From the NCBI GenBank assembly GCA_965202785.1, contig OZ241855.1:160001-224000 (forward strand): a DNA stretch of 64,000 nt, read 5' to 3'. The notes under the pieces are model-generated. The model was not told the DNA's origin, did no database searches, and saw nothing but the letters and a program-made list of their open reading frames with translations. The position numbers and the translations under genes are program-made. This document shows, piece after piece, positions 53,238 through 56,578 of this stretch (position 1 is the stretch's first letter; the number at the start of each line of letters is the position of its first letter). The DNA is from Thermodesulfobacteriota bacterium (GTDB lineage: Bacteria > Desulfobacterota_D > UBA1144 > Nemesobacterales > Nemesobacteraceae).

Positions 53238-54170
53238 ATGGGCAGACCCGAATTCGGAGTAATGCTGAGACAGCAGAAAATAGATTTTGAGGATATAAAG
53301 GCCGCGGCGCAGTTATGCGACTCGACCGGATACGATTCCGTTTGGTTCTACGATCATGTTCTAGGTCAGGGAATAATAGGGATAGACATCTATGAACCTT
53401 GGACTTTAATGTCCGCACTCTCGACAGTAACGGAGAACGTTAAGCTCGGAACGATGGTGCTCTGCAACCCATTCAGGTACCCTCCCCTGCTTGCCAAGAT
53501 GGCTTCAACGCTTGACGTGATAAGCAACGGACGCCTGGAATTCGCAATAGGGGCCGGATGGTTTGAAGAGGAATTTCGCGCTTACGGATATCCCTTTCCT
53601 TCAACGAAAGAAAGAATAGAGATGCTGAGAGAAGCGGTCACGATACTCAAACTGATGTGGGCTGATGAAACCGCCTCTTTTGCCGGCAAACATTACAAAG
53701 TGGAAAACGCGTTTTGTAACCCCAAGCCCGTTCAGCGTCCCCACATTCCAGTATGCATCGGAGGTTCCGGAGAAAAATTCCTCTTAAGGGCAGTGGCGGA
53801 ACTCGCCGATGAATGGAACTGTCCCGCGACAAGCGCAATTGAATTTGACCGCAAGCACTCGATACTCCGCAAGCACTGCGAGGAAGTCGGGAGAGAGATA
53901 AAAGATATAACGATATCTCAGCAGACCGTCTGCGTTCTGGTTGAGGACAGAAAAGATCTCCCCGAAAAACTCGAAAAGGCCCAGAGACGCTATGGATTCT
54001 TCGGAGACATAGAAAAACTCGGGATCGTGGGAACCCCGGAAGACTGCGTAGGAAAGATCAACGCGGATCTGGAAAAGGGAATATCCAAGTACACGATTTT
54101 CTTCTCCGACGTGATGAATCCCAAGACCATAGAGCTTTTCGCAAAGGAAGTAATACCCGAATTCAGATAA
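53238..54170 (+). CDS. Luciferase-like monooxygenase (LLM) class oxidoreductase, possibly F420-dependent
   Basis: W..DH, EPWT..SAL, LAKMA.TLDVISNGRL..GAGW.E.E..AYG and PKPVQ.PH.P..IGG.GEK motifs. Confidence 0.88.
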   Translation: MGRPEFGVMLRQQKIDFEDIKAAAQLCDSTGYDSVWFYDHVLGQGIIGIDIYEPWTLMSALSTVTENVKLGTMVLCNPFRYPPLLAKMASTLDVISNGRLEFAIGAGWFEEEFRAYGYPFPSTKERIEMLREAVTILKLMWADETASFAGKHYKVENAFCNPKPVQRPHIPVCIGGSGEKFLLRAVAELADEWNCPATSAIEFDRKHSILRKHCEEVGREIKDITISQQTVCVLVEDRKDLPEKLEKAQRRYGFFGDIEKLGIVGTPEDCVGKINADLEKGISKYTIFFSDVMNPKTIELFAKEVIPEFR

Positions 54171-54292
54171 AGATTAGGCTGTTGGAGTTCTTCACTGATT
54201 TGCAATCTCTTCTGCGCAATCTGCTTCTTTCGAACCTCTGCTATTGAAGTTTGAACTAATAGTGAATAGTTTATAATTAGGATGTGGACACT

Positions 54293-54634
54293 ATGAAAAC
54301 AGCATTGCTACTGGCAACATGCTTCGCATTGTTTCTTACCGGCGGTGTGGCGAATGCTTTCTCCACATGTCCAATGAACATGGAGAAGGCTTCCGCCGAA
54401 ATGCAGATGGACGCCAACATGGACATGCCTTGCCATGAAACAAAAGATTCGGAAGATCGAAGCTCCGAACAATGCGATGGCTGTGACTGCCAGCATTGTG
54501 TCCAGATAAACGCATTGCCGCTTGAAGAATTAAAAGATCATCACGGGGGATCTGCTGTCGGAATTCTTGCCGATCAGCTTCTGTCCTCCCGCCAGATCGA
54601 AACCCATTTCCGACCTCCAAAACACCTCTCCTGA
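54293..54634 (+). CDS. Cys-rich secreted leader protein ending RPP (CopL/CutF/DUF2946-like)
   Basis: Signal peptide ending ANA; CPM, Met-rich stretch, PCH, CDGCDCQHC; C-terminal HFRPPKHLS. Confidence 0.7.
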   Translation: MKTALLLATCFALFLTGGVANAFSTCPMNMEKASAEMQMDANMDMPCHETKDSEDRSSEQCDGCDCQHCVQINALPLEELKDHHGGSAVGILADQLLSSRQIETHFRPPKHLS

Positions 54635-54707
54635 GCAAATCGCGCGCGTCCGCGCGCTATAAACGGCTTCGCCTCGGCGTCGTCAAGCCATAATCGATAC
54701 TCAGGAG
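54628..54707 (+). promoter_or_regulatory. RBS-sequestering RNA structure
   Basis: CTCCTGAG (54628-54635, spanning the leader stop) is the exact reverse complement of CTCAGGAG (54700-54707, SD of the next gene). Internal hairpins GCGCGCG/CGCGCGC and GGCTT/AAGCC. Confidence 0.7.
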
Positions 54708-54712
54708 GAAAC

Positions 54713-55360
54713 ATGAAATTAACAGTTTTCACTTTATGCTGCGTGATCCTGATGGGATACGCCCCTCAGTCTTTGTCTCGTCCGGTTTCATATCCGGGCG
54801 GCTGGACGATCATGCAGAAAAACGACAAGAACGCGCATTCTCTTCACGTTCATTATTCACCGACGGCCAAGTATTCGATAGGATACAGAACCGAATACTG
54901 GCGCGAGGAGGAGTGGCAGTTCCACGGCGCACAGCTTAACTATCTGGTGAAGCGCCATAATGCGGCGACCTCACAGGCAAACTTTTATCTTAAAGGCGGT
55001 CTTGGCATGGCCTACGGTGATCTCGGAGTGCCCGACGGCGAACCCCAGCCCGCCGCCTTTGCCGATATCGCCCTTGACTGGGAAACCCGGCGGTACTTTA
55101 CGAGTTATGAGAACCGCGTCTACTACGCCGAAGACATAGCGAAGTTCTTCAGGCAGAAAGCGCGGGTGGGAATCGCCCCTTATATCGGGGACTACGGCGA
55201 TATCCACACTTGGCTGATGCTGCAAGTTGACCACATCACGGGGGAGAGAGATAACATCTCGTTTACGCCTTTTGTCCGGTTTTTTAAGAACGAGTATCTC
55301 GCTGAGGTCGGAATCAGCGACAAAGGTGGGATTTTGTTCAATTTAATAATAAGATTTTAA
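54713..55360 (+). CDS. Exported protein, probable outer-membrane beta-barrel
   Basis: Signal peptide, RPVSYPGG start of mature part, alternating aromatic beta-strand pattern, terminal F. Confidence 0.6.
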   Translation: MKLTVFTLCCVILMGYAPQSLSRPVSYPGGWTIMQKNDKNAHSLHVHYSPTAKYSIGYRTEYWREEEWQFHGAQLNYLVKRHNAATSQANFYLKGGLGMAYGDLGVPDGEPQPAAFADIALDWETRRYFTSYENRVYYAEDIAKFFRQKARVGIAPYIGDYGDIHTWLMLQVDHITGERDNISFTPFVRFFKNEYLAEVGISDKGGILFNLIIRF

Positions 55361-55370
55361 GGAGAAAACT

Positions 55371-55760
55371 ATGAAAATATCAATCACAGTGATTCTTTTT
55401 ATGACGTTTTTCTTTGTGTTCCCAATCCTTGCACAACATGGAGAACACGAACATAACCATAGCCATGAAGGTCAGGTGGTGGAGCCCTCTGCCGCTTCAA
55501 ACAATATGGAAAACGCCGCCTGTGAAGACACCGTCAATATCAAGGTCAGCGGGCTTGTATGCGATTTCTGCGCCCGTTCCCTGGAAAAAGTCTTCCTGAA
55601 ACGCGGCGATGTTGCGGGAATCAAGGTTGATCTCGGCAAAGGCTCCGTAGCGGTCGCTATGAAGCCCGGATTAACCATTGATGATGCAACGCTTACGAAG
55701 CTTATCACGGACTCAGGGTACAAAGTGAGCGCAATTCACAGGGGGTGCGAGCATGGATAA
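55371..55760 (+). CDS. Periplasmic heavy-metal-associated (HMA) domain protein
   Basis: Signal peptide, His-rich HGEHEHNHSHE, and V.GLVCDFCA (GMxCxxC-like)...I.DSGY. Confidence 0.85.
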   Translation: MKISITVILFMTFFFVFPILAQHGEHEHNHSHEGQVVEPSAASNNMENAACEDTVNIKVSGLVCDFCARSLEKVFLKRGDVAGIKVDLGKGSVAVAMKPGLTIDDATLTKLITDSGYKVSAIHRGCEHG

Positions 55761-56148
55761 CGCAAATCCCGGCTATGGAGTGAAGCAAACGCTTCTCCCC
55801 TCGCTTAGCCTGCTTACATCCGCTGGAACACTTGTGTGCTGCGCCCTTCCCGCATTATTAGTGACGATCGGCGCCGGCGCGGTTCTGGCGGGAATCGTAG
55901 GCACCGCACCCTGGCTGATCGCGTTGTCAAAATACAAGATCTGGACGTTTGGAATCTCAGGCGCAATGCTTCTAATCGCCGGAGTCGCGCTCTGGAGGGC
56001 AAGAAACGCCCCCTGCCCGATTGACCCGGCTCAGGCAATGGCGTGTGCCAGATTACGAAAGACAAGCAACTGGATATACCTGTTATCCGTGCTCCTGTGG
56101 TGCGTGGGGTTTTTCTTCGCTTTTATCGCCGTGAGAGTTTTTTACTGA
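55753..56148 (+). CDS. MerT-like three-TM metal transporter
   Basis: CCALP Cys pair in TM1, cytoplasmic CP......C, three hydrophobic segments; overlaps the HMA gene stop. Confidence 0.7.
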   Translation: MDNANPGYGVKQTLLPSLSLLTSAGTLVCCALPALLVTIGAGAVLAGIVGTAPWLIALSKYKIWTFGISGAMLLIAGVALWRARNAPCPIDPAQAMACARLRKTSNWIYLLSVLLWCVGFFFAFIAVRVFY

Positions 56149-56196
56149 CATCTTTCGGGTCAAAAGATTAGGGAAATGTCCGGGAAAACCGGCGTT

Positions 56197-56221
56197 TCCC
56201 TAGCCTGCAGGGGACTAGGGA
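56197..56221. terminator. Hairpin between convergent genes
   Basis: TCCCTAG...CTAGGGA inverted repeat; weak U tracts. Confidence 0.4.
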
Positions 56222-56227
56222 TGTTGG

Positions 56228-56578
56228 TCAGGAATTTTTCTGGCCTCCGAAAGACTCTAGGACCATCTCGGCGAACTCGCCCGCGAATTCTCTTATTCTG
56301 TTCGATATCTGCTTCTCGGAAGTAGCCCTTTCGTAAGTATCGGCCATTCTCATCATCGTATAGTAGAAATGGTAGTTCATTTCGCCCACTTCCATTTTCT
56401 TGGTCCAGAGATCTATTACCAGAGATTCCTTCTTCTCGGCATCCCACATGGAGAGGAAAGCCGCCTCGCAGCGTTTTTCTCCCGGTTCCTCAGACTGAGA
56501 AGCCTCCCAGAAAAGCTCTTCGGGAACATTGTCGTCCCCCAGTATTACCTTCAGTTTTATTTCAGCGTCTTTGGACAT
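56228..56578 (-). CDS. gldC: GldC family protein
   Basis: I...V.L..NVPE.L.W.A, LS.WD...KE.L.IDLWTK.M.V.EM and MADTYERAT pattern. Confidence 0.75.
   Translation of the reverse strand: MSKDAEIKLKVILGDDNVPEELFWEASQSEEPGEKRCEAAFLSMWDAEKKESLVIDLWTKKMEVGEMNYHFYYTMMRMADTYERATSEKQISNRIREFAGEFAEMVLESFGGQKNS

Follow-up and report, generated by a model that had tools for sequence, protein, structure and literature searches.

The window, the whole 64,000-nucleotide stretch of DNA that was analysed, carries a short leader ORF that is followed by a spacer and a cassette of three genes encoding a predicted outer-membrane β-barrel, a predicted periplasmic HMA protein and a MerT-like inner-membrane protein. 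The locus contains the following features:

54251..54277, + strand: possible promoter, weak and judged by eye, with TTGAAC (54251–54256), a 15-nt spacer and TATAAT (54272–54277).
54293..54634, + strand: leader ORF of 113 amino acids, from the sequence and its translation; ATG at 54293, TGA at 54632–54634, C-terminus FRPPKHLS.
54293..54358, + strand: putative Sec signal peptide (residues 1–22, ..VANA/FS), judged by eye from the translation.
54368..54499, + strand: candidate metal-binding region from C26 to C69, with CPM, a Met-rich stretch, MPCH and CDGCDCQHC.
54585..54589, + strand: upstream anti-SD copy CCTCC, 49 nt from the ORF end, which pairs with the SD once 54602–54635 is blocked.
54614..54619, + strand: Pro108-Pro109 codons CCT CCA, candidate arrest site; CCTCC at 54614–54618 doubles as an anti-SD copy.
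54627..54635, + strand: anti-SD strand of helix P1, from the fold; the last Leu and Ser codons, the TGA stop and one further base.
54642..54657, + strand: hairpin P2, GCGCGCG TC CGCGCGC, from the MFE fold.
54665..54689, + strand: hairpin P3, GGC..CGC-loop-GCG..GCC (GGCTT..AAGCC), from the MFE fold.
54700..54708, + strand: SD strand of helix P1, CTCAGGAGG; the SD core GGAGG (54704–54708) lies 4 nt 5′ of ATG 54713.
54713..55360, + strand: predicted outer-membrane β-barrel of 215 amino acids, from an AlphaFold2 model, without a Pfam or NCBIfam family.
55371..55760, + strand: predicted periplasmic HMA protein of 129 amino acids with a signal peptide, the His-rich stretch HGEHEHNHSHEG and a CDFC motif.
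55753..56148, + strand: MerT-like inner-membrane protein of 131 amino acids, whose gene overlaps the HMA gene by 8 nt.

The leader reads as a CopL/CutF-like, exported, Cys/Met-rich peptide. Its translation displays C26-P-M, P46-C47-H48 and C61DGCDCQHC69, and the 113-residue ORF, the three Cys motifs and the FRPPKHLS end all lie where the preliminary description had placed them. The signal peptide was recognized by eye from K2, a hydrophobic core and the boundary MKTALLLATCFALFLTGGVANA / FST, and the aligned leader relatives all have a hydrophobic stretch near the N-terminus. A consensus promoter scan of the locus reported no + strand promoter; the possible promoter at 54251..54277 was missed because its 15-nt spacer falls outside the 16–18 nt range of the scan.

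The leader is a single-copy gene in the genome, and its orthologues are present in 24 of the 25 loci of relatives. A profile search identified 206 relatives (clusters at 50% identity) at E ≤ 1e-3. The preliminary description had proposed an HMM comparison of the leader with DUF2946 and CopL. The leader matches no Pfam family, including DUF2946 (PF11162), at E ≤ 1. NCBIfam CopL_fam (NF033807) aligns with residues 10–109, nearly the full length, at E 0.0076 and 16.9 bits, below its 40-bit cut-off, and the same model matches 50 of 130 leader relatives (E ≤ 0.01; best E 2.3e-10). CzcI matches five of the 130 relatives, and DUF2946 matches two (E ≤ 0.01). These CopL_fam, CzcI and DUF2946 matches of the relatives served as a proxy for the iterative search from CutF/CopL seeds by which PMC9973294 collects CutF-like proteins. 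A word-indexed protein search with the leader profile returned only Dadabacteria-type hypothetical proteins, none of them annotated by Pfam. The sequence comparisons support the leader as a putative distant relative of copper-sensing leader peptides, with the link to the CopL/CutF-like superfamily running via its relatives.

Conservation in the leader family is concentrated in the Cys region and at the C-terminus. C47 is invariant across 130 leader relatives, and C27, H48, C61, C64 and C66 are each found in at least 90%. Between the first two Cys positions, Met makes up a median of 13.6% of the residues, versus 0% in the linker. The RPP motif to which the preliminary description had drawn attention is conserved only in its prolines: PP is invariant among the 130 relatives, and the preceding residue varies (R in 55, Q in 27, P in 15, plus others). 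The PP codons also differ among relatives (CCA CCC, CCG CCT or CCG CCG), and the constancy of PP despite this variation indicates selection at the peptide level. PP is separated from the stop codon by exactly four residues in 116 of 127 relatives, and the conserved C-terminal unit is [R/Q/H]PP[K/I/R]xxS-stop. The distance from the Cys cluster to PP is 40–46 residues in 127 of 130 relatives and 41 in the window. The linker between them is otherwise unconserved, and the N-terminal spacing ranges from 12 to 31.

The end of the leader is complementary to the SD region of the barrel gene. As had been proposed, CTCCTGAG (54628–54635) and CTCAGGAG (54700–54707) are exact 8-nt reverse complements. The R-P-P codons (54611–54619) end 8 nt 5′ of the anti-SD, close to the earlier estimate of about 10 nt. 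The MFE fold of 54600–54730 is a three-way junction in which the stop region and the SD are paired and P2 and P3 are enclosed, in agreement with the two internal hairpins described previously. Its energy is −36.7 kcal/mol, compared with −25.4 ± 3.5 kcal/mol for 200 shuffles, none of which is as good (z −3.29). The pairing between the stop window and the SD window (−17.8 kcal/mol) is equalled by none of 488 other windows of the locus. In the unconstrained ensemble, 54700–54707 has an unpaired probability of 0.00–0.01, and the 78-nt spacer between the leader stop and the barrel ATG at 54713 is almost fully base-paired. An Rfam search over 54100–56400 at E ≤ 10 returned just four chance-level snoRNA/sRNA rows.

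The secondary structure is maintained in relatives. In 15 same-genus sequences, P2 is 95.9% paired, with one-sided changes only, and P3 is 95.6% paired and has a UUCG loop in most relatives. The ATCG/CGAT extension of the helix that had been described is present in the window and is not conserved in relatives, where 62% of cells are paired and the U-A pair is found in 4 of 15. The anti-SD/SD pairing itself was found in 24 loci of the order, even with wholly different sequences (for example, L023, L025 and L020), and in 25 proteobacterial, Bdellovibrionota and other loci. Among 39 non-redundant representatives, defined as leaders less than 80% similar to each other, the stop window outperforms at least 95% of control windows in pairing with the SD in 31, and the SD is paired in the free fold (unpaired probability < 0.2) in 35. 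Of the 39 leaders, 23 have TCC as their final sense codon. The identity of the stop codon follows the base directly 5′ of AGGA: TGA occurs with C in 15 cases and TAA with T in 12, and two are discordant. The expected conservation and co-variation of the helix were thus observed across phyla, with the compensatory change located at the stop codon.

One alternative is chance complementarity next to an ordinary small secreted protein gene. The one observation in its favour comes from within the genus, where the helix shows no compensatory change: one pair changed on both sides, a count that 439 of 500 shuffles reach. Co-variation is absent there because the helix is invariant in the genus. The pairing energy unmatched by the 488 control windows, the retention of pairing in 31 of 39 divergent loci and the co-variation of the stop codon with the SD flank make chance a scarcely credible explanation.

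The SD was predicted to be freed when a ribosome occupies the stall site, and this expectation failed for the window. When the nucleotides that a ribosome at PP or at the stop would cover were blocked in silico in the window and its genus, the SD stayed paired by switching to CCTCC 54585–54589 (unpaired probability 0.00). The CTCC at −49 is present in seven of nine same-genus representatives. Up to three in-register anti-SD copies are concentrated in the last 78 nt of the leader (2.10 versus 0.25 CTCC per 100 nt). Across the 39 representatives, blocking the PP footprint raised the median SD accessibility from 0.01 to 0.23, with values above 0.5 in only seven. Three sister-family leaders end in LLTKHIL(I/V) or LLTLRILV, without PP, and retain the anti-SD just 3′ of the stop codon; the helix is therefore possible without the proline motif.

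These observations bear on plain translational coupling, in which the leader would be a real periplasmic CopL-like metal-binding protein and barrel translation would be tied to leader translation without a metal-dependent pause. Because the stop codon is part of the anti-SD, the latter would be melted by every ribosome that terminates there. The helix of the PP-less leaders fits this explanation, as do the HMA and MerT-like genes, which are themselves coupled through their 8-nt overlap. In the available text of PMC9973294, moreover, the proline motif of CutF alone gave no arrest in a LepB reporter, which favours coupling and counts against a pause-dependent switch. However, a role as a mature protein leaves the fixed four-residue PP-stop distance (116/127) and the 40–46-residue Cys-PP distance unexplained, and coupling does not account for as many as three anti-SD copies that lie in register within the final 78 nt. 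CutF and CruR, as far as the available texts of PMC9973294 and PMC9426467 report, are also undetectable as mature proteins and act in cis only. Overall, coupling is a possible but rather unlikely account of the locus.

A second alternative places the control at transcription, as in CruR, whose own mode this is (PMC9426467, available text). The ribosome at the leader end would govern Rho-dependent or other premature termination in the spacer, and the helix would act mainly in mRNA stability or processing. RNA-library data consist of assembled contigs of relatives, 88–99% alike, in which depth differences and uncovered parts are unusable. The leader contigs of three libraries (X2, X3 and X5) end at 54599–54621, a weak hint of such termination, whereas other contigs cross the spacer and connect the leader with the barrel gene (X1 record 1 and X3 record 8), as co-transcription of the two would predict. 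No intrinsic terminator was found by a scan of the leader-barrel spacer, and no T-run follows P2. The 78-nt spacer is structured and G+C-paired; that of cruR, in the accessible parts of PMC9973294 and PMC9426467, is a long unstructured C-rich rut region of 162 nt. Furthermore, the helix engages the SD specifically and with co-variation. Transcriptional control is accordingly considered improbable.

The products of the downstream cassette agree with the output proposed in the preliminary description, namely a barrel, an HMA protein and a MerT-like permease. The AlphaFold2 model of the barrel protein (pLDDT 81.9) consists of a signal helix followed by 12 strands. In the PDB, it matches the porins KdgM and NanC best (E 4.8e-5, TM 0.47–0.64 (0.53/0.64), 6–8% identity). 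The species genomes contain 241 barrel relatives, and an Atlas search with the barrel returned unnamed clusters only. The HMA protein scores 23.7 bits against Pfam HMA (PF00403) in hmmscan, where the cut-off is 24.8 bits, and 25.2 bits in a six-frame genome search. CopZ-type NCBIfam models match it at E 2.6e-7, and the CDFC motif is kept in its orthologues.

An AlphaFold2 model of the MerT-like protein has three helices, with a confidence (pLDDT 63.7) that is too low to support a structural search. All 11 orthologues retain C29-C30 of helix 1 as well as C88 and C98, which lie in the loop that leads into helix 3. In the Atlas, the closest clusters carry the name MerT family (score 0.97), and Pfam MerT (PF02411) weakly matches 4 of the 11 orthologues (best E 2.7e-4). 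The protein of the window has no Pfam MerT match at E ≤ 5, and a PDB sequence search with its profile yielded only bacteriorhodopsin (E 0.28). Sequence comparison thus supports 55753..56148 as the gene of a putative distant MerT relative.

The genome context of the cassette is sparse in other metal genes. No MerA was found above the family cut-off genome-wide (best match 329.9 bits versus 454.45), and no regulator gene adjoins the cassette, whose neighbours are an LLM oxidoreductase gene and a GldC-like gene; this agrees with the earlier remark that neither merA nor merR lies adjacent. The HMA protein is the only HMA match of the genome, which contains no P-type ATPase. With a sole HMA domain and no P-type ATPase in 1.64 Mb, the cassette is the main recognizable soft-metal handling system of the cell. 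Three same-genus genomes (98–99% complete) contain COX1 and lack both the cassette and a P-type ATPase, which shows that the cassette is not indispensable for the oxidase. COX1 was uninformative as a correlate of the cassette, being present in 40 of 41 genomes.

The module is widespread rather than restricted to this organism. The leader-barrel-HMA-MerT set is found repeatedly in Dadabacteria, Alpha- and Gammaproteobacteria and Bdellovibrionota. The leader is missing from 25 of 102 cassette loci. A strong SD accompanies the leader: an SD score of at least 4 was obtained for 73 of 75 loci with a leader versus 4 of 25 without one.

Most of the computational checks suggested in the preliminary description turned out in favour of its reading. 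The sequence evidence supports a CutF/CruR-type interpretation of the locus, and a cis-acting leader-peptide switch of this type is its probable function. The leader would be translated and then exported via Sec, and its Met/Cys/His region would sense a soft metal, most likely Cu(I). The invariant C-terminal PP, four codons ahead of the stop, would constitute a programmed pause site. When the leader end is free of ribosomes, 54627–54635 (the last two sense codons and the stop) would pair with the barrel SD at 54700–54708, and the PP codons and the upstream CCTCC would serve as back-up anti-SD copies. With the SD hidden, the barrel/HMA/MerT-like operon would go untranslated. Pausing at PP or at the stop would place a ribosome over the anti-SD and so free the SD for translation of the cassette, and the dwell time of this ribosome would be set by the metal state of the nascent chain. 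As to the sign of regulation, we lean slightly toward an uptake route that runs from the outer-membrane channel through the periplasmic HMA protein to the MerT-type importer and is on when the metal is scarce. Metal binding would then relieve the pause and turn the cassette off, as in CruR.

The three anti-SD copies raise the further idea of a time filter, which we put forward as speculative. A single paused ribosome would cover the stop and PP copies, and a second, queued ribosome would be needed for the third copy, ∼29 nt upstream. The SD would not open until a prolonged, metal-dependent arrest had let a ribosome queue form. The output would be a previously undescribed, P-type-ATPase-independent pathway in which a soft metal, probably Cu(I), would pass through a 12-strand outer-membrane channel to the periplasmic HMA protein and on to a MerT-type permease. 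Such a route, if real, would serve streamlined marine and symbiotic bacteria that are stripped of all P-type ATPases and other HMA proteins.

To our knowledge, CutF and CruR are the only proteins for which experiments have demonstrated metal sensing by a nascent chain, and both belong to Pfam DUF2946 and come from Proteobacteria. A leader-peptide switch at this locus would extend the principle to a subfamily not recognized by Pfam (206 clusters at 50% identity) and to the phylum Dadabacteria. It would also extend it to an output on which the main texts of PMC9973294 and PMC9426467 are silent, in which an unannotated barrel family (241 relatives in species genomes) precedes an HMA protein and a MerT-like permease. 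The explicit geometry, with PP, four codons, a stop within the anti-SD and a stop base that co-varies with the SD flank, gives clean mutational predictions. Literature searches on MerT-like proteins, DUF2946 with MerT and Dadabacteria with copper found nothing relevant, and none of the titles of the 16 papers listed for DUF2946 concerns a leader-barrel-HMA-MerT cassette. HMA, MerT, porin and barrel are absent from the main texts of PMC9973294 and PMC9426467, whose supplementary neighbour tables may list the cassette.

Among known systems, CutF of Rhodobacter capsulatus (cutFOG; DUF2946), whose mechanism is already established (PMC9973294; bioRxiv 10.1101/2025.02.05.636593), resembles the window leader in its small size, its Sec signal for export (putative in the window), its Cys motif and the proline motif near its C-terminus. 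In both cases, a stem-loop shields the SD of the next gene, here in silico. The CutF mechanism also involves metal-dependent stalling of ribosomes at the proline motif, to which the proposed pause at PP would correspond. The filters for CutF-like proteins given in the accessible text of PMC9973294 are a length below 150 aa, PP in the last 15 residues and a same-strand next gene within 1000 nt; the window leader has 113 aa, P108-P109 of 113 and 78 nt to ATG 54713. A further filter is an N-terminal Sec (SPI) signal peptide called by SignalP, for which the leader offers the features recognized by eye. CutF differs in having CxxxC rather than a multi-Cys/Met/His sensor region, a PPP repeat (bioRxiv 10.1101/2025.02.05.636593, available part) rather than PP and a multicopper oxidase rather than a barrel/HMA/MerT-like set as its output, and the window leader lacks a Pfam DUF2946 match. 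In the window, the anti-SD overlaps the stop codon and has back-up copies, which may be a further difference from CutF.

CruR of Bordetella pertussis (bp2923) is also an upstream ORF at the head of a metal-acquisition operon, with an outer-membrane uptake protein among its outputs. It combines a Cys motif with a C-terminal R-x-PP-type motif at a spacing of 45, compared with 40–46 here (PMC9426467, available text). CruR relies on Rho-dependent termination over a long unstructured spacer, whereas the 78-nt spacer of the window is structured and sequesters the SD. Furthermore, CruR needs no signal peptide and contains RAPP in place of [R/Q]PPK (FRPPK in the window). CopL of Xanthomonas and Stenotrophomonas (NF033807 CopL_fam), the nearest curated model to the window leader, is required in cis for copper-regulated expression of the next gene (PMC9973294, available text). 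The leader scores 16.9 bits on this model, far under 40, and the gene downstream of CopL encodes the copper oxidase CopA. SecM, MifM and VemP share the logic of an exported or inserted nascent chain whose externally tuned arrest opens the SD hairpin of the next gene (PMC9973294, available text). Unlike the proposed switch, they monitor the export machinery rather than metal, and they have no sequence relation to the leader.

The MerT/MerP pair of mer operons resembles the downstream cassette in placing a periplasmic CxxC HMA protein beside a small three-helix membrane protein. MerT carries two adjacent cysteines in helix 1 and another Cys pair in the loop after it, and in its model the MerT-like protein of the window would likewise place C29-C30 in helix 1 and C88/C98 in the loop. 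The MerT-like protein misses the Pfam MerT model, and the HMA protein scores 16.8 bits on the MerP model, where the cut-off is 92.55. In contrast to mer operons, the cassette has no MerA above the cut-off in its genome and no adjacent regulator gene, and its HMA and MerT-like genes are preceded by a dedicated outer-membrane barrel and the putative leader switch.

The locus is a real, conserved and well-defined leader-peptide switch, predicted from sequence, of the kind represented by the copper-sensing leader peptides CutF and CruR. The switch heads a widespread, previously uncharacterised cassette with a predicted role in soft-metal transport. Sequence and ORF reading place four closely packed genes on the + strand at 54293-56148.

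Genes of the locus (window coordinates)
54293-54634, + strand, leader, 113 aa
54713-55360, + strand, barrel, 215 aa
55371-55760, + strand, HMA protein, 129 aa
55753-56148, + strand, MerT-like protein, 131 aa; 8-nt overlap with the HMA gene

The leader reads MKTALLLATCFALFLTGGVANA/FSTCPMNMEKASAEMQMDANMDMPCHE...CDGCDCQHC...FRPPKHLS, and its close homologues carry the source name Candidatus Dadabacteria. The window's genome forms one contig of 1.64 Mb. In family scans, the locus is flanked upstream by an F420-type LLM oxidoreductase gene and downstream by a convergent GldC-like gene. The latter (56228-56578, - strand) scores 102.5 bits against TIGR03515, barely passing the cut-off of 102.15, and is unexpected outside Bacteroidota.

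At the leader stop, CTCCTGAG (54628-54635) is the exact reverse complement of CTCAGGAG (54700-54707) in the ribosome-binding site (SD) region of the barrel gene. The leader ORF, its motifs and this complementarity had been reported in a preliminary description and are confirmed in the sequence. The minimum free energy (MFE) fold of 54600-54730 pairs CTCCTGAG with CTCAGGAG around two enclosed hairpins, bearing out the fold proposed there, with an energy of -36.7 kcal/mol (z -3.29) that is equalled by 0 of 200 shuffles. In the ensemble, the window's SD bases are unpaired with a probability of 0.00-0.01. An Rfam search returned no family at the locus.

The barrel gene is found in 25 of the 41 genomes searched: the window's own, 20 of another 24 in the genus, 3/3 of one sister family and 1/3 of another. 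The barrel, HMA and MerT-like genes occur in identical order in all 25 loci fetched, and 24 of these contain a leader ORF. The exception, L021 (from the same genome as L051, and representing one species of the genus), lacks the leader at ∼1645-1715, where 69 nt separate the end of the LLM oxidoreductase gene from the barrel start; its barrel SD is weak (score 3). In a Dadabacteria relative (L045:1270-2924), the leader ORF is broken, after the codons for CNG and before those for CDCQHC, by a ∼1.2-kb insert containing a 315-aa ORF, transposase-like by eye, which constitutes a natural leader disruption ahead of an intact barrel gene.

A stretch at or just after the leader stop is complementary to the SD region in 24/24 loci, even where the sequences are wholly different: ACCTCCTCTTG pairs with CAAGAGGAGGT in L023, TTCCCCGCTTT with AAAGCGGAGGAA in L025 and TTCTGAGTA with TACTCAGGA in L020 (stop region and SD region, respectively). 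At the genus level, 92.4% of helix cells are paired versus 34-53% in slid controls. These helices are nearly invariant and therefore yield no co-variation signal within the genus. The ATCG/CGAT extension of the preliminary description is not kept in the genus (62% paired). The leader C-terminus is F(R/Q/H)PP(K/R)(H/Y)xS in the genus and PPKPPPKHIS in one sister lineage. Three leaders of another sister family, f7 (L023, L024 and L025), end in LLTKHIL(I/V) or LLTLRILV without PP. They retain CPM and the Cys/His motifs, and their anti-SD, the stretch complementary to the SD, sits just past the stop. These leaders may be a form of the switch that dispenses with proline, or they may reflect coupling alone.

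Scanning the barrel profile against one genome per species identified 241 relatives, the best 80 of which were retained. By record title, these 80 loci include Alphaproteobacteria (Rickettsiales, Micavibrio and Rhodospirillales), Gammaproteobacteria (Cellvibrionaceae, Legionellales, Pseudomonadales and Marinicella), Bdellovibrionales and one Omnitrophota. The barrel start was assignable in 102 of 105 loci, a set in which some genomes occur twice. A leader-like upstream ORF is observed in 77 of the 102, or 75 once L079 and L099, false on inspection, are removed, and 73 loci combine the leader with HMA and MerT-like genes. Outside Dadabacteria, the leader is present in 26 of 50 loci, with PP within its last 8 residues in 25 of the 26. 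A strong SD (score at least 4) precedes the barrel in 73/75 leader loci versus 4/25 leaderless loci with enough upstream sequence. The absence of any SD-like motif before the start in 13 of these 25 leaderless loci (e.g. L061, L070, L072, L077 and L085-L089) points to joint evolution of the strong SD and the anti-SD.

The helix was examined in 39 representatives, no two of which have leaders reaching 80% similarity. Duplex energies with the 24 nt preceding the barrel start were calculated for the stop window, which runs from 12 nt upstream to 10 nt downstream of the stop, and for all other windows of the same locus as controls. The helix is kept in 31 of the 39 divergent loci, where ≤5% of control windows equal the stop window. 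Overall, 1654 of 28035 control windows do so, the majority contributed by five loci in which the helix test fails (L068, L100, L024, L041 and L093). The co-variation sought in the preliminary description is observed between the middle base of the stop codon and the base immediately 5′ of AGGA: TGA+C occurs in 15 representatives, TAA+T in 12 and TAG+T in 1, with 2 discordant (TGA+T, TAA+C), 5 with other bases and 4 lacking an AGGA core. TGA and TAA states both occur among closely similar alphaproteobacterial leaders, and the co-variation is therefore not one inherited event, the counts being of loci rather than tree events. TCC is the last sense codon in 23/39.

Free folding leaves the SD core paired (P unpaired <0.2) in 35 of the 39 representatives, the median being 0.01. 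A 31-nt block centred on the second Pro codon lifts the median SD accessibility to 0.23 (>0.5 in 7/39), and a block at the terminating position lifts it to 0.20 (>0.5 in 8/39). In the fold with a blocked stall site that the preliminary description had proposed, the window's SD remains paired, switching to CCTCC at 54585-54589. A simple model with a single ribosome is therefore not the full account for the genus. SD opening may be decided by kinetics, not equilibrium, or a second ribosome may be needed over the third anti-SD copy. In leader ORFs, the final 78 nt contain CTCC tetramers at eight times the density of the remainder (2.10 versus 0.25 per 100 nt). These tetramers recur at -7 (Ser codon and stop), at -20 (CCT CCN Pro codons) and, in the window's genus, at -49. 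PP is retained under other codon choices and is therefore selected as peptide.

Searching 1.84 billion representative proteins with a profile built from 14 leaders (A1) gave 206 matches at E≤1e-3, of which 35 reach E≤1e-10. Alignment A3 (n=130) comprises the window's leader and 129 of the 150 matches listed, leaving out 8 rows belonging or close to the Dadabacteria sequences that A1 already contains, as well as 13 that by eye are truncated or N-terminally extended. C47, P108 and P109 are invariant in A3; of the RPP motif first described, PP thus stands and R, which alternates with Q or H within the genus, does not. At least 90% of A3 sequences retain C27, H48, C61, C64 and C66. The Cys cluster lies 40-46 residues from PP in 127/130 (modes 41 and 44), the tail after PP is exactly 4 residues long in 116/127, and the C-terminal residue is Ser in 113/127. 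The two N-terminal Cys positions are spaced by 12 to 31, and the median Met content between the first two Cys positions is 13.6% versus 0% in the linker.

In the HMM comparison with DUF2946/CopL suggested there, the NCBIfam model CopL_fam (NF033807) matches 50/130 of A3 (best E 2.3e-10), CzcI 5/130 and Pfam DUF2946 only 2/130. The window's leader itself has no Pfam match and lies below the CopL_fam cut-off (16.9 bits, E 0.0076; cut-off 40). The published list of CutF-like proteins includes CutF, CruR, CopL and CzcI (PMC9973294). Because leader relatives match both CopL and CzcI, the link to this superfamily is real but transitive. The Met/Cys/His motifs, together with the CopL link, favour Cu(I) as the candidate sensed metal.

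The cassette is covered by contigs that were assembled from four metatranscriptomic libraries, labelled coral, sponge and 'organism A', and are 88-99% similar to the window; transcript ends and levels are not readable from such contigs, and DNA is possible in such libraries. Two contigs bridge the leader-barrel junction (X1 record 1, 54200-54934; X3 record 8, 54581-54885). Leader contigs of three RNA libraries from three studies (X2, X3 and X5) end in 54599-54621, just before the helix, and the X3 end is an adapter junction. These ends, which may mark a fragment or transcript boundary or assembly breaking at GC-rich hairpins, are at most a weak hint.

The barrel matches no Pfam or NCBIfam family. 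Its AlphaFold2 model, built on 12 orthologues, contains 12 strands (pLDDT 81.9) and, among solved folds, comes closest to the 12-strand porins KdgM and NanC (E 4.8e-5, TM 0.53/0.64, 8% identity). The HMA protein, the sole HMA match in the window's genome, combines a signal peptide with a His-rich stretch and the motif CDFC. In the MerT-like protein, a CC pair in helix 1 and two Cys in the loop preceding helix 3 are all invariant. The Atlas clusters closest to this protein bear the name MerT family, and Pfam MerT weakly matches 4/11 orthologues. The absence of merA noted previously extends to the whole genome, where no MerA scores above cut-off. The genome also contains no second leader.

The search for P-type ATPases of any kind came up empty in the window's genome and in the 24 other members of the genus covered, although each of the 14 control genomes scores. 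Among the 41 genomes, 25 have the cassette without a P-type ATPase, 9 a P-type ATPase without the cassette and 7 neither. The two never occur together, a pattern rather than a test because the genomes are kin. The window's genome encodes one heme-copper oxidase subunit I, and COX1 is present in 40/41 genomes. Three near-complete genomes of the genus contain COX1 and lack both cassette and P-type ATPase, and the cassette is therefore not indispensable for the oxidase.

Neighbours vary among the 13 proteobacterial cassette loci examined. A gene for a MauE-domain membrane protein follows the MerT-like gene in three (L050:5050-5787, L063:4933-5670 and L104:4455-5024), and another lies on the other strand at L083:1951-2334. 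In L050, this gene is fused to a glutaredoxin domain. The arrangement hints at a thiol-redox partner without counterpart in the Dadabacteria locus. The only metal- or oxidase-related neighbours are a P-type ATPase, an RND pump (ACR_tran) and COX15/CtaA, each adjoining a single locus (L060:16-1482, L104:5096-6622 and L102:5673-6623).

In CutF, copper on the exported nascent chain is described as lengthening a pause at the C-terminal proline motif, which melts a stem-loop shielding the SD of cutO (PMC9973294; bioRxiv 10.1101/2025.02.05.636593). In CruR, copper is described as relieving arrest at RAPP, leading to Rho-dependent termination before a TonB-dependent transporter gene, and the CXXC-RAPP spacing is conserved (PMC9426467). 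The window's leader falls within the operational CutF-like filters for length, C-terminal PP and position of the next gene (PMC9973294) and shares the SD-sequestering output with CutF; its family shares with CruR a rule for the spacing between Cys and proline motifs. Unlike CutF and CruR as these accounts present them, the window's leader belongs to a different HMM family and phylum and has a richer metal-binding region, its locus has an anti-SD overlapping the stop and extra anti-SD copies, and the output cassette differs. HMA, MerT, porin and barrel are not mentioned in the main texts of PMC9973294 or PMC9426467 (supplements aside). The regulatory principle is already known; the subfamily, geometry and output are new details.
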